A stretch of 64,000 bases of DNA from Escherichia coli (lineage in GTDB: Bacteria > Pseudomonadota > Gammaproteobacteria > Enterobacterales > Enterobacteriaceae): the NCBI RefSeq assembly GCF_044324875.1, contig NZ_CP172185.1. One strand, 5' to 3'. A program made the position numbers and the translations under genes. This document shows positions 6,884 through 62,493 of the stretch, piece after piece (position 1 is the first letter of the stretch; each line of letters begins with the position of its first letter). The notes beneath the pieces are model-generated. The model was not told the DNA's origin. It did not search any database and saw nothing but the letters and a program-made list of their open reading frames with translations.

Positions 6884-7107
6884 TTTATATCAATAATACC
6901 ATTTACAAAAATATGCATTAATTAATAGATGTGATAAATATTTAATATGCTTAAGTATTTGTTGTATTTATATTGCAATAGTTGATTTGTTTTAAATCAA
7001 TAAAACAATATGTTTACATTGCGGCAACTTTTTTGATGTGAGAAATTTGTTTCCAAGAGATACAGACTCTTAACAACCAAAAAATAAATTTTATTAAGGA
7101 ACATATT
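6884..7107 (+). promoter_or_regulatory. AT-rich upstream region of the yehDCBA fimbrial operon (probable promoter, typical of nucleoid-protein-silenced loci)
   Basis: Extended AT-rich tract immediately upstream of yehD; no exact promoter mapped. Confidence 0.35.
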
Positions 7108-7650
7108 ATGAAACGTTCAATTATTGCTGCCGCTGTCTTTTCTTCTTTTTTTATGAGCGCTGGGGTATTTGCCGCAGACGTTGATACCGGAACATTAACC
7201 ATTAAAGGGAATATTGCAGAATCTCCGTGTAAATTCGAAGCGGGTGGCGATTCAGTAAGTATTAATATGCCAACTGTACCAACCACTGTCTTTGAAGGTA
7301 AAGCTAAATACTCGACCTATGATGATGCAGTCGGTGTAACCAGCAGCATGTTAAAAATTAGCTGTCCGAAAGAAGTTGCTGGTGTAAAACTCTCGTTGAT
7401 TACCAACGATAAAATAACCGGAAACGATAAGGCGATAGCCAGTAGCAACGATACCGTGGGGTACTATCTCTATTTAGGTGATAACAGCGATGTCCTGGAT
7501 GTTTCTGCACCTTTTAACATTGAGAGTTATAAAACAGCGGACGGTCAATATGCTATTCCGTTTAAAGCAAAATACCTGAAGCTGACAGATAATTCAGTGC
7601 AATCAGGTGATGTGTTATCTTCTCTGGTTATGCGTGTGGCGCAGGATTAA
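7108..7650 (+). CDS. yehD: Fimbrial major subunit (chaperone-usher pathway)
   Basis: 180-aa ORF, signal peptide MKRSIIAAAVFSSFFMSAGVFA, fimbrial subunit size and composition. Confidence 0.88.
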   Translation: MKRSIIAAAVFSSFFMSAGVFAADVDTGTLTIKGNIAESPCKFEAGGDSVSINMPTVPTTVFEGKAKYSTYDDAVGVTSSMLKISCPKEVAGVKLSLITNDKITGNDKAIASSNDTVGYYLYLGDNSDVLDVSAPFNIESYKTADGQYAIPFKAKYLKLTDNSVQSGDVLSSLVMRVAQD

Positions 7651-13540: not shown

Positions 13541-13813
13541 ATGTCTCATACAATCCGTGATAAACAGAAACTGAAAGCGCGTGCCAGTAAGATTCAGGGC
13601 CAGGTCGTGGCGCTCAAGAAAATGCTCGACGAGCCGCACGAATGCGCTGCATTTTTACAACAGATTGCTGCTATCCGTGGCGCGGTAAACGGTCTGATGC
13701 GGGAAGTGATTAAAGGTCATCTGACGGAACACATCGTTCACCAGGGGGATGAGCTAAAACGTGAAGAAGATCTGGATGTCGTTCTGAAGGTGCTGGATTC
13801 TTATATCAAATAA
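13541..13813 (+). CDS. rcnR: Ni/Co-responsive repressor RcnR (CsoR/RcnR family)
   Basis: 90-aa [45 protein letters not shown]... Confidence 0.93.
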
Positions 13814-13884
13814 TTTATTAACGCGATTGTAAAACTGCGGTTTTTCCTCGTTTACAACGCGTGCGCTGGACATTACCATCCTCC

Positions 13885-14035
13885 TCTGCGATTTATCATC
13901 GCAACCAAACGACTCGGGGTGCCCTTCTGCGTGAAGGCTGAGAAATACCCGTATCACCTGATCTGGATAATGCCAGCGTAGGGAAGTCACGGACCACCAG
14001 GTCATTGCTTCTTCACGTTATGGCAGGAGCAAACT
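13885..14035 (+). promoter_or_regulatory. TPP riboswitch (THI-box) in the thiM leader
   Basis: ggggtgcccttctgcgtgaaggctgagaaatacccgtatcacctgatctggataatgccagcgtagggaagtc (13916-13988) matches the thiM THI element; located directly upstream of thiM; 5' boundary approximate. Confidence 0.85.
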
Positions 14036-30961: not shown

Positions 30962-31048
30962 AAAAAATAAGCCCGTGTAAGGGAGATTACACAGGCTAAG
31001 GAGGTGGTTCCTGGTACAGCTAGCATTTTATGGGTTATGTTTTTCAGC
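30962..31048 (-). ncRNA. cyaR: CyaR (RyeE) Hfq-dependent sRNA
   Basis: Minus-strand sequence gctgaaaaacataacccataaaatgctagctgtaccaggaaccacctccttagcctgtgtaatctcccttacacgggcttatttttt matches CyaR as I remember it, including the terminator hairpin and U-tail. Confidence 0.9.
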
Positions 31049-31079
31049 GAAACAGATGATAACCTTAATAAATGCAGCT

Positions 31080-44900: not shown

Positions 44901-45102
44901 TGACATCCGGGCTCGCACCTGGGTAGAGCGTGACTACCTGAATGGTCGGATAGTCCACTTCCGGCAGCGCCGAAACGGGCAGGGCTCGATAACCGATAAT
45001 CCCGGCGAGTAAGATCGCCACCATCAGCAGCGTGGTGGCGACAGGACGCATAATAAACAGGCGCGACGGGCCGCCTGTGCTGCTCGGGGGTAACACCTGC
45101 AT
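41980..45102 (-). CDS. mdtB: RND multidrug efflux pump subunit MdtB
   Basis: 1040-aa RND permease; ATGA overlap with mdtA stop. Confidence 0.93.
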
Positions 45103-46349
45103 CAGGAGCGTGCTCCTTTTTTCGCGTATTCGCGGCTGGTGGCTTTCTCTTCCGGAGTGGTGGCGCTCTGGGCTTCCACTACTTCCACTTTCGCCCCTTC
45201 GGTCAGGCGATCAATGCCGTCCGTCACTACGCGGTCGCCCGCAGAAATACCTGCGCGGATCACCACTTTCTGACTGTCCTGAATGCCCGGCGTCACCAGA
45301 TGTTTGCTGACCTTGTTTTCGCTATTCAGCACCCAGACAAAATGGCCTTCGTTGCCCATTTGCAGAGCGGCGGTGGGGATCACCACGGCGTTTTGTTCGG
45401 TGTCGACTAACATACGCGCGTTAACAAACTGATTGGGAAACAGCGCATCATCCTGATTATTAAAGCGGGCTTTCACTTTAATCGTACCGGTAGTGGCATC
45501 GATTTGGTTATCGAGACTTAACAGCGTGCCTTCACTTAATTTCTTCGAGTTGGTGCGATCCCAGGCTTCAACAACCAGCGGTTTTCCGGCTTTTTGCGCC
45601 TGTACTACGGTAGCGATATCGCTTTCCGGCAGGGTAAAGAGCAAATCGATAGGATGCGTCTGGGTGATCACCACGATCCCGGTGGTATCACCACTGGAGA
45701 TTTGGTTACCAACATCAACCTGCTTGAGACCAACGCGACCATCAACTGGTGCAGTAATACGGCTCCAGTCGAGTTGCAGCTGCGCGCTGGCGACGCTTGC
45801 TTCATCAGCCTTAATGGTGCCTTCGGTTTCACTGACCAGCGCTTGTTGGGCATCCAGTTCCTGACGAGATACGAGATTGGTTTTTGCCAGTTGCTGATAA
45901 CGCGCCAGGTCACGGCGGGCGTTGGCAAGCGTGGCTTTATCTTTTGCCAGTTGGCCCTGGGCTTGTGCTAATGCAACTTTGAACTGGCTGGGGTCAATTT
46001 CTGCCAGTAAATCGCCTGCTTTGACCTGCTGGCCTTCCTGGAAATGTAACGCTATCAGTTGGCCGTCCACGCGGCTGCGCACCGTAACGGTATTAGCGGC
46101 GGTAATGGTGCCAAGCCCGGTGAGGTAACGCGGAACTGCCTGTTCTACGGCGGTCGCCGCCTGAACCGGGGCTAATGGGCCGGAACGCATACCACGGCGA
46201 CCACCCGCTGGCGATTGCTGCGCTTGTTTCGTCGCCCCTGGGGCTGCACTCCGGGAGTCATTGCGGCCTTGCCAGAACCAGAATGCGGCGATGGCGGCGA
46301 TAACCACCACGATTACGATTACCCAACGGGATTTATAACTGCCTTTCAT
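45102..46349 (-). CDS. mdtA: Membrane fusion (periplasmic adaptor) protein MdtA
   Basis: ORF 45102..46496; start taken at [25 protein letters not shown] (415 aa). Confidence 0.9.
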
Positions 46350-46401
46350 CGTTAAGAGTTTCTCTTCCTGAAACGTTTCGCGGAATGATACTAGTGTAGC
46401 C

Positions 46402-46419
46402 AGCCAATAAGGGAGAAAA
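46402..46419 (-). promoter_or_regulatory. BaeR box in the mdtA promoter
   Basis: Minus-strand tttttctcccttattggc, close to the BaeR consensus as I recall it (TTTTTCTCCATDATTGGC), about 55 bp upstream of mdtA. Confidence 0.6.
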
Positions 46420-46579
46420 ATGGAGGAATTATGAAACACTGTCGGGAATCGTCTGAATGACGGGCACATTTGCGAGCACGCATCCAGTAATAACACATGA
46501 AACTATTTTATCTACGCGTTAGCGATAGACTGCTTGCATGGCGAAAGGAGGTAAGCCGACGATTTCAGCGGGACGCTGA

Positions 46580-46720
46580 AACGGGAAAGCCCCTCCCGAG
46601 GAAGGGGCCTTAAATAAGGAAAGGGTCATGATGAAGTGGATCATCATCGTGGTGCTCTTAGTGATTAGCTACCCAGCATACTAAGACTACCAGGGCGGGG
46701 GAAACCCCGCTCTACCCTCA
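46580..46720 (-). ncRNA. Putative Sib antisense sRNA, copy 1 (antitoxin of the overlapping ibs)
   Basis: Minus-strand promoter ttgaca-17-tacttt (weaker -10 than copies 2 and 3); terminator hairpin gcccct...aggggc then tttcccgttt; boundaries approximate. Confidence 0.45.
46628..46684 (+). CDS. Ibs-family small hydrophobic toxin, variant MMKWIIIVVLLVISYPAY (copy 1)
   Basis: 18-codon ORF at the same position in the repeat unit as the other two ibs genes. Confidence 0.6.
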   Translation: MMKWIIIVVLLVISYPAY

Positions 46721-46907
46721 CTCCTGAAAGTATGCCTTCACGATAAGATTGTCAATCTGCAGGCTTTGCAGTCTGCGATCCTGCCAGCAAATATTCTTTG
46801 CGAGACGTTACGCAATAATCACACTGGAAACTATTTTATCCGCAAGTCAGCGATAGACTGCATACAGGGCGAAAGGAGGTAAGTCGACGATTTCAGCGGG
46901 ACGCTGA

Positions 46908-47048
46908 AACGGGAAAGCCCCTCCCGAGGAAGGGGCCTTAAATAAGGAAAGGGTCATGATGAAGCTACTCATCATCGTGGTGCTCTTAGTCATAAGCTTC
47001 CCCGCTTACTAAGACTACCAGGGCGGGGGAAACCCCGCTCTACCCTCA
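46908..47048 (-). ncRNA. sibB: Putative Sib antisense sRNA, copy 2 (SibB-like)
   Basis: Minus-strand promoter ttgaca-17-taattt (-35 at 47078-47083, -10 at 47055-47060); terminator hairpin 46917-46936; boundaries approximate. Confidence 0.55.
46956..47012 (+). CDS. ibsB: Ibs-family small toxin MMKLLIIVVLLVISFPAY (IbsB-like)
   Basis: 18-codon ORF; matches my recollection of IbsB. Confidence 0.65.
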   Translation: MMKLLIIVVLLVISFPAY

Positions 47049-47237
47049 CTCCTGAAATTATGCCTTCACGATAAGATTGTCAATCCGCAGGCTTTGCAGT
47101 CTGCGATCCTGCCAGCAAATATTCTTTGCGAGTCGTTACGCAATAATCACAGAGGAAACTATTTTGTTCACGCGTTAGCGATAGACTGCATTCAGGGCGA
47201 AAGGAGGTAAGCCGACGATTTCAGCGGGACGCTGAAA

Positions 47238-47383
47238 CGGGAAACCCTCTCCCGGAGAAGAGGGCTTTTAATAAGGAAAGGGTTATGATGAAGCACGTCA
47301 TCATACTGGTGATACTCTTAGTGATTAGCTTCCAGGCTTACTAAGAACACCAGGGGGAGGGGGAAACCTCTCCCTAACCCTCA
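47238..47383 (-). ncRNA. sibA: Putative Sib antisense sRNA, copy 3 (SibA-like)
   Basis: Minus-strand promoter ttgaca-17-taattt (-35 at 47413-47418, -10 at 47390-47395); terminator hairpin ccctct...agaggg then tttcccgttt; boundaries approximate. Confidence 0.55.
47285..47344 (+). CDS. ibsA: Ibs-family small toxin MMKHVIILVILLVISFQAY (IbsA-like)
   Basis: 19-codon ORF. Confidence 0.65.
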   Translation: MMKHVIILVILLVISFQAY

Positions 47384-47564
47384 CTCCTGAAATTATGTCA
47401 CTCCGCCCTTAGTGTCAATCGACGGCTCTCCGTTCTTGCGAGGCGAATAGCAAAATTTTCTGCGCCGCCGGGCCTAATTCTGAAAGTTGCTTTGCCTGCT
47501 CATATTTCATTGTTGCAGTCGGTATGATACCGGACCTCAATAATTCTCTAAGAAAGGATTTCTT

Positions 47565-48224
47565 ATGAGCGAACAAATCACGTTTGCCACCAGCGATTTT
47601 GCCAGTAACCCGGAACCACGTTGCCCCTGCATTTTGCTGCTGGATGTTTCTGGTTCTATGAACGGTAGACCCATTAATGAACTTAACGCCGGATTGGTTA
47701 CCTTTCGCGATGAGCTGCTTGCCGATTCGCTGGCCTTAAAAAGAGTGGAACTCGGTATTGTGACGTTCGGCCCGGTGCATGTGGAACAACCCTTTACCAG
47801 CGCCGCTAATTTTTTCCCGCCCATCCTGTTTGCCCAGGGCGATACACCAATGGGGGCCGCCATTACCAAAGCCCTGGATATGGTTGAGGAGCGCAAACGT
47901 GAGTATCGCGCCAATGGTATTTCCTATTATCGCCCGTGGATTTTCCTGATCACCGATGGCGCTCCAACCGATGAGTGGCAGGCTGCCGCCAACAAAGTGT
48001 TTCAGGGGGAAGAAGATAAGAAGTTTGCCTTCTTTTCCATCGGTGTTCAGGGGGCGGATATGAAGACTTTGGCACAAATCAGCGTTCGTCAGCCTTTGCC
48101 ACTGCAGGGATTACAATTCCGTGAACTGTTTAGCTGGTTATCCAGTTCGCTGCGTTCGGTTTCCCGCTCCACGCCGGGAACGGAAGTTGTGCTGGAAGCG
48201 CCAAAAGGCTGGACGTCAGTGTGA
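47565..48224 (+). CDS. yegL: von Willebrand factor A (TerY-like) domain protein
   Basis: 219-aa ORF; MIDAS-type motif [11 protein letters not shown] near N-terminus; stop overlaps yegK start. Confidence 0.85.
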
Positions 48225-62013: not shown

Positions 62014-62481
62014 AGTAAGTACAAAACCTATTCGTTGTATGACAAATGTCACAATTCGATCATGGATAAATCGGGGCAAAAATGCAATGTTGCAGCACTA
62101 TTTATCTCATATTATTTGAGGGTAATAACCTCACATTATCCCTGAATTAAAAGTGGTAATAATAAAATATTATTTAAGAAATATCGCATGTGGAGACGCA
62201 ATATTAAATATTGTCAACCTAAAGAAACTCCTAAAAACCATATTGAATGACACTTAATATAATTCTTAAAAATAGCCAATTGCCGAATTGTTACCTTGCC
62301 TGCTATTCCGTTAGCTGTAACACTTCCTCCTGCATTATTGGAGAGCCAATATTCAATTACCATAATGTCACCTTATATTCGGAAGTTAATTTCCGTAATA
62401 ACCCTTTCTCATCAACGACTGCATGCTGAGAGGGTGTGAAAAATTAAACTAAATCAGTGTATTGGTAGCTAAAAAGCCAGG

Positions 62482-62493
62482 GGCGGTAGCGTG
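62482..62493 (+). promoter_or_regulatory. ops element (RfaH recruitment site) within a JUMPstart sequence upstream of wza
   Basis: ggcggtagcgtg matches ops consensus GGCGGTAGnnTG; in the long 5' leader of the colanic acid cluster. Confidence 0.8.

Follow-up and report, generated by a model that had tools for sequence, protein, structure and literature searches.

The region between mdtA and yegL of Escherichia coli raises the question whether three tandem sib/ibs type I toxin-antitoxin units are an exceptional state, since judged by K-12 only two are expected there. The window analysed in this study is a stretch of 64,000 nucleotides of an E. coli genome (contig NZ_CP172185.1 of assembly GCF_044324875.1). 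A sequence-only reading of this window had described three repeat units of about 328 bp and had regarded the additional one as a copy-number change beside a putative defence triad and an efflux operon. Here the integrity of the units, their number in other strains and the direction of the change are considered.

Materials and methods

The ends of the Sib RNAs were transferred from the annotation of sibA (144 nt) and sibB (136 nt) in NC_000913.3, the +1 positions being placed by homology. The assignment of peptides to the Ibs family follows the PGAP naming in RefSeq; with 18-19 aa they lie below the 20-aa and 30-aa minima of the profile searches. For the census of copy numbers, positions 46150-47800 were compared by megablast with 5,426 complete E. 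coli genomes, and 5,419 of these matched. The proportions were taken from 40 and from 60 evenly spaced rows of the list ranked by coverage x identity and are not a full count. Rows with an alignment starting at query position 320 or later under-report the units; four- and five-unit arrays were found there. B-type units were collected from the window, from K-12 and other E. coli arrays (including APEC O1, ST131, SX4 and O104:H4) and from cryptic Escherichia.

Results

The intergenic region of mdtA and yegL (46350-47564, 1215 bp) houses the whole array (Table 1). Tandem Repeats Finder reported a single array at 46488-47397 with a period of 328, 2.8 copies, 89% matches and a score of 1422. The repeat search detected three in-register copies spaced 328/328 to 328/335 apart. 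Over 300 nt, unit 1 shares 90% identity with unit 2, whereas unit 3 is 76-79% identical to both. The SIB_RNA model (Rfam RF00113, gathering score 56) matched three times on the minus strand, each time over its full length (model positions 1-147) and with E-values of 1e-30 to 1e-32. Furthermore, translation gave three intact plus-strand ibs ORFs, so that every unit holds the ORF of 18-19 codons that had been read from the letters. The three tandem units in the gap are thereby borne out by repeat finder, covariance model and translation alike. On the sequence evidence they are members of the Sib/Ibs type I toxin-antitoxin family, which every test applied supports.

Table 1 Features of the sib/ibs array and its flanks (positions of the 64,000-nt window)
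Feature	Positions	Strand	Remarks
mdtA	45102-46349	-	left flank of the array; ATG at 46349
Three-unit tandem SIB (QUAD) repeat array	46469-47420		about 328 bp per unit; from repeat finding
Unit 1	46469-46796		adjoins mdtA side; extra B-type unit
Inferred unequal-crossover site	46557-46636		80 nt, unit 1 = unit 2; partner 46885-46964
Unit 1 Sib RNA, predicted	46584-46719	-	136 nt; by SibB homology, 10 substitutions vs K-12 SibB
Unit 1 Sib terminator hairpin	46586-46611	-
RF00113 match, unit 1	46613-46755	-	139.2 bits
Unit 1 ibs ORF	46628-46684	+	18 aa, MMKWIIIVVLLVISYPAY; ribosome-binding site AAGGAAAGGG upstream
Unit 1 Sib -10 TACTTT	46732-46727	-
Unit 1 Sib -35 TTGACA	46755-46750	-
Unit 2	46797-47124		middle; sibB/ibsB
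SibB RNA (unit 2), predicted	46912-47047	-	136 nt; 1 substitution vs K-12 SibB
SibB terminator hairpin	46914-46939	-
RF00113 match, unit 2	46941-47083	-	143.5 bits
ibsB ORF (unit 2)	46956-47012	+	MMKLLIIVVLLVISFPAY; = K-12 IbsB, WP_001386899.1
SibB -10 TAATTT	47060-47055	-
SibB -35 TTGACA	47083-47078	-
Unit 3	47125 to about 47420		adjoins yegL side; sibA/ibsA
SibA RNA (unit 3), predicted	47239-47382	-	144 nt; 1 substitution vs K-12 SibA
SibA terminator hairpin	47242-47267	-
RF00113 match, unit 3	47270-47418	-	149.5 bits
ibsA ORF (unit 3)	47285-47344	+	MMKHVIILVILLVISFQAY; = K-12 IbsA, WP_010723109.1
SibA -10 TAATTT	47395-47390	-
SibA -35 TTGACA	47418-47413	-
yegL	47565-48224	+	vWA-domain protein; right flank; followed by pphC and yegI

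No Sib match beyond the three of the array was detected by the Rfam scan of the 64-kb window. RNA elements found elsewhere in the window include the sRNA CyaR/RyeE (30965-31050, minus strand, RF00112, 100.7 bits), a TPP riboswitch (13905-14001, plus strand, RF00059, 71.2 bits) and a JUMPstart element (62455-62493, plus strand, RF01707, 57.3 bits). JUMPstart elements are typical of the leaders of polysaccharide gene clusters.

For all three Sib RNAs a promoter of the form TTGACA-17 nt-TACTTT (unit 1) or TTGACA-17 nt-TAATTT (units 2 and 3) lies 7 nt before the inferred +1 G. The strings quoted in the sequence-only reading are therefore present upstream of each inferred start. A generic sigma-70 promoter scan of the region missed them, since the -10 hexamers TAATTT and TACTTT each agree with TATAAT at just three of six positions; the promoters left unscored are those driving SibA and SibB in K-12. 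At the 3' end of every Sib RNA, a G+C-rich hairpin of 11 bp precedes UUUCC. The three RNAs have a common fold consisting of a closing stem, three internal hairpins and the 3' terminator hairpin, with z-scores of -4.68 (unit 1), -4.41 (unit 2) and -4.91 (unit 3) against dinucleotide shuffles; the fold energy of the unit 1 Sib is -60.1 kcal/mol. Each RNA spans the entire ibs ORF, the ribosome-binding site AAGGAAAGGG and 37-46 nt 5' of the ATG. Covariance model, K-12-mapped ends and promoter strings agree on an antisense RNA of about 140 nt with promoter and terminator in every unit, as had been proposed. By these elements, each unit is predicted to give a Sib transcript of about 136-144 nt from its own promoter to an intrinsic terminator.

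The terminator hairpin of SibA was also scored on the plus strand (47245-47264), where the stem is followed by CTTTTAATAA within the 5' leader of ibsA. At the equivalent plus-strand site units 1 and 2 have CCTTAAATAA, and no terminator was scored. The terminator-like site could attenuate the transcription of ibsA.

The peptides of the three units fit the hydrophobic form of 18-19 residues, MMK-(hydrophobic core)-S-aromatic-P/Q-A-Y. The unit 1 peptide equals WP_100249716.1 of strain GMF054, annotated as 'type I toxin-antitoxin system Ibs family toxin'. For the ibs mRNAs no convincing promoter consensus was visible upstream of the ORFs. In K-12, 5' ends have been published for ibsC and ibsD only (Han et al. 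2010, PMC2943612).

Unit 1 was examined as a possible decaying copy, non-functional through a silent promoter or an inactive peptide. In favour of decay, its covariance-model score is below those of units 2 and 3, the -10 hexamer reads TACTTT and not TAATTT, and a peptide joining W-I (residues 4-5) to Y (residue 15) turned up only once among the 26 B-type units sampled. Yet 139 bits far exceed the gathering score, TACTTT is the -10 of K-12 sibB too, and the fold z-score equals those of the other two units. The unit retains an intact ORF, ribosome-binding site, -35, -10 and terminator, the peptide MMKWIIIVVLLVISYPAY is complete and annotated in other genomes, and the whole region was matched at an identity of at least 99% in 227 records. 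A decayed unit 1 is thus improbable. From -35 to +1, TACTTT included, its Sib core promoter matches K-12 sibB at every position, and the region upstream of its ibs differs from that of K-12 ibsB by 1 nt. The promoter identity makes expression of unit 1 a well-grounded expectation. Toxicity of its peptide and repression by the cognate Sib would be expected from the literature together with the identity to the K-12 promoters.

Two units, sibA/ibsA and sibB/ibsB, are present at this locus in K-12 MG1655, as stated in the sequence-only reading. In the sampled census, three units were found in about 40% of the genomes, corresponding to roughly 2,100-2,200 of 5,422 records, which matched as one collinear piece at 100% coverage. 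These were rows 1-16 of 40 and 1-24 of 60, each with ibsA and two more annotated Ibs genes. Two units accounted for about 41% (rows 25-48 of 60, two-piece matches with two Ibs genes), four or five units for about 12% and one unit for about 3%; the remaining rows include fragments. Inspection verified one unit in MB7671 and O25:NM 2014EL-1343-2, two in K-12, APEC O1 and ST131, three in GMF054, O157:H7 PA11 and O104:H4 FDAARGOS_348, four in strain 10 and PRO_A-1490, and five in SX4. Hence, three units are an unexpected number only relative to K-12, and O157:H7 PA11 and O104:H4 FDAARGOS_348 show that reference strains carry three as well. The three-unit array is a co-modal, RefSeq-annotated and previously reported state of a polymorphism of one to five units and is not specific for the strain of the window.

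Statements specifically on the copy number of sibA/sibB were not found in a literature search. Ibs counts by strain were reported as 6 for EDL933 and 7 for Sakai, S. boydii, S. sonnei and E. fergusonii, against 4 for S. flexneri (range in Shigella, 4-7); duplication and loss in individual lineages were given as the cause (Fozo et al. 2010, PMC2887945).

Several of the inspected arrays differ in composition. In APEC O1 and in the ST131 strain 4993 both units are B-type (779-1163 of each retrieved locus) and sibA/ibsA is absent. The two-copy state of these strains is therefore independent of that of K-12, which consists of IbsB and IbsA. The largest array was seen in SX4 with five tandem Ibs genes (974-2346 of the retrieved locus). 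Two adjacent ones are identical (WP_100792650.1), which looks like a recent duplication. For O25:NM 2014EL-1343-2 an IS66-family tnpA was found in the place of mdtA, beside a lone sibA/ibsA unit (1-547 of the retrieved locus); this array is truncated by insertion or rearrangement and not by recombination between units. The ibsA at the yegL end does not vary among the compared arrays that have it.

Apart from this one strain with IS66 replacing mdtA, the array is flanked by mdtA and yegL at every copy number from one to five, and pphC comes after yegL wherever the retrieved stretch extended that far. Since the flanks are constant at all copy numbers, the number of units is not tied to the neighbours. 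The significance attached to the adjoining putative defence triad and efflux operon is not supported, as the same flanks at one to five units give no link. The copy number of the array is uninformative about the efflux operon or the genes yegL, pphC and yegI.

Aligned globally, the intergenic regions of K-12 and of the window show a single gap of exactly 328 nt and are otherwise about 98% identical. Left of 46557, the B-unit of K-12 has the base of unit 1 at 19 of 20 informative sites; right of 46636 it has the base of unit 2 at 10 of 11. The switch falls inside the stretch of 80 nt that is identical in units 1 and 2 (Table 1). The sibB unit of K-12 is a hybrid with unit 1 on the left and unit 2 on the right: the part upstream of ibs is of the unit 1 type, the part with ORF and Sib of the unit 2 type. 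The hybrid and the exact 328-nt gap together mean that K-12 is best read as a deletion derivative and not as the baseline. By parsimony, its two-unit array probably arose from a three-unit array by an unequal-crossover deletion of 328 bp. Gene conversion could in principle also be the source of the hybrid unit. The gain in the strain of the window that the sequence-only reading implied is probably the reverse of what occurred, K-12 having lost 328 bp.

Outgroup arrays were found in cryptic Escherichia. Between mdtA and yegL, Escherichia sp. MOD1-EC7003 (6977-7119) and E. whittamii (13720-13862) have one unit and Escherichia sp. E1V33 (1768-2238) has two, all positions being those of the retrieved loci; the stretches of E. 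whittamii and of the E. coli representative are cut close to the array, so clean outgroup copy numbers come from MOD1-EC7003 and E1V33 only. Three units as the deep ancestral state are unsupported, with these outgroups having one or two.

A recent, strain-specific duplication of sibB/ibsB, i.e. a gain over a two-unit norm, would agree with the two units of K-12 and the one or two of cryptic Escherichia, which demand gains somewhere in the lineage. But with 31 differences in 328 positions, units 1 and 2 have not arisen by a recent duplication. Three units recur across many unrelated lineages, among them O157:H7, O104:H4 and isolates from pigs, cattle, dogs, humans, soil and water. Moreover, had a K-12-like unit simply been duplicated, K-12 sibB would not be expected to be a mosaic of both units. 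We consider such a duplication very unlikely. Deletion in K-12 remains the preferred reading for this pair of strains, and at the mdtA-yegL locus as a whole the copy number evidently rose and fell repeatedly. The shifts would result from unequal homologous recombination of one 328-bp unit with another.

That a two-unit array was mis-assembled as three can practically be dismissed: short-read assemblers can mis-count tandem repeats of 328 bp, but the three units are too distinct to be collapsible copies, the collinear three-unit architecture recurs in roughly 2,100+ complete genomes, and the array of GMF054 is identical to that of the window, the only differences in 1651 nt being 2 in mdtA.

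Discussion

We regard the region with high confidence as a tandem of three intact sib/ibs type I toxin-antitoxin modules, representing a common repeat-number allele. Overexpressed Ibs proteins were reported to be toxic, causing membrane depolarisation and growth arrest (Wen and Fozo 2014, PMC4147584; Han et al. 2010, PMC2943612). According to these studies, Sib pairs with the ibs mRNA, which blocks translation and is followed by decay of the mRNA. Following the K-12 mechanism, each unit of the window would encode a small hydrophobic Ibs membrane toxin on the plus strand and a constitutive Sib RNA of about 136-144 nt on the minus strand, complementary to the whole ibs ORF and its ribosome-binding site. 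Pairing of Sib with the cognate ibs mRNA would block translation, lead to mRNA decay and keep the toxin off.

Sib has been described as recognising its target through two independent domains, TRD1 being directed at the ORF and TRD2 at the translation-initiation region; paralogues are told apart by the sequence differences within these domains (Han et al. 2010, PMC2943612; Wen and Fozo 2014, PMC4147584). Between the Sib RNAs of unit 1 and unit 2 there are only nine differences, at +42, 45, 49, 54 and 57 and at +80-83. By our own mapping, which is not an alignment with SibC, the differences at +42-57 would lie in the TRD1 equivalent, and those at +80-83 would fall in the P6 loop, facing codons 4-5 of ibs. 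In the TRD2 region the two units do not differ. The shared TRD2 makes cross-repression between units 1 and 2 conceivable; the two RNAs might repress each other's toxin, and the third unit might be partly redundant.

Among the 26 B-type units from 13 arrays, residues 4-5 (IL, LL or WI) are combined with the C-terminal block (F, Y or W at residue 15) in nearly all ways. This mosaic of B-type peptides points to frequent recombination or conversion among the units. The variable Ibs blocks lie opposite the P6 loop and the TRD1 equivalent, which suggests that recombination shuffles determinants of specificity. As a tentative model, B-type units may be recombining cassettes, in which unequal crossover and gene conversion continually create new toxin/antitoxin specificities as well as new copy numbers.

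The three-toxin array is already contained in the RefSeq annotation, and variable Ibs counts were published in 2010. Mildly new are the clean hybrid nature of K-12 sibB and the mosaic B-type units. The two units of K-12, used as yardstick for the mdtA-yegL locus, are not the norm of the species; three are equally common within a range of one to five. For the annotation of sRNAs and small proteins and for read mapping in strains other than K-12, extra near-identical Sib/Ibs units should be expected. The locus is a natural variable-number repeat of 328 bp that can be mis-counted in short-read assemblies. K-12 sibB itself would be a small and tidy case of unequal crossover reshaping a toxin-antitoxin array.

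The closest known system is the pair sibB/ibsB and sibA/ibsA of K-12 MG1655 (QUAD1a/b, SIB repeats; b4437/b4668 and b4436/b4667), which has the same locus and orientation. The IbsA and IbsB peptides are identical in both strains, SibA and SibB are 1 nt off each, and promoters and terminators are the same. In contrast to K-12, the window has an extra B-type unit by mdtA. The Sib RNA of this unit is 9-10 positions off SibB, and its peptide differs from K-12 IbsB at residues 4, 5 and 15 (W-I...Y vs L-L...F). GMF054, O157:H7 PA11 and O104:H4 FDAARGOS_348 have the same three-unit layout with three toxins of the RefSeq Ibs family. The B-type peptides vary from strain to strain, with I-L/Y and W-I/F in O157:H7 and L-L/Y and L-L/F in O104:H4.

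Small hydrophobic toxins with RNA antitoxins, arranged in tandem in one intergenic region, are also known from the ldr/rdl LDR repeats and from zorO-orzO/zorP-orzP of EHEC. The copy number of these tandem loci varies by lineage as well (Fozo et al. 2010, PMC2887945). However, ldr/rdl and zor-orz are sequence families other than sib/ibs. Sib is fully cis-antisense to the whole ORF of its toxin, whereas for Rdl and OrzO the pairing is with the 5' region of the mRNA that encodes the toxin (Wen and Fozo 2014, PMC4147584).
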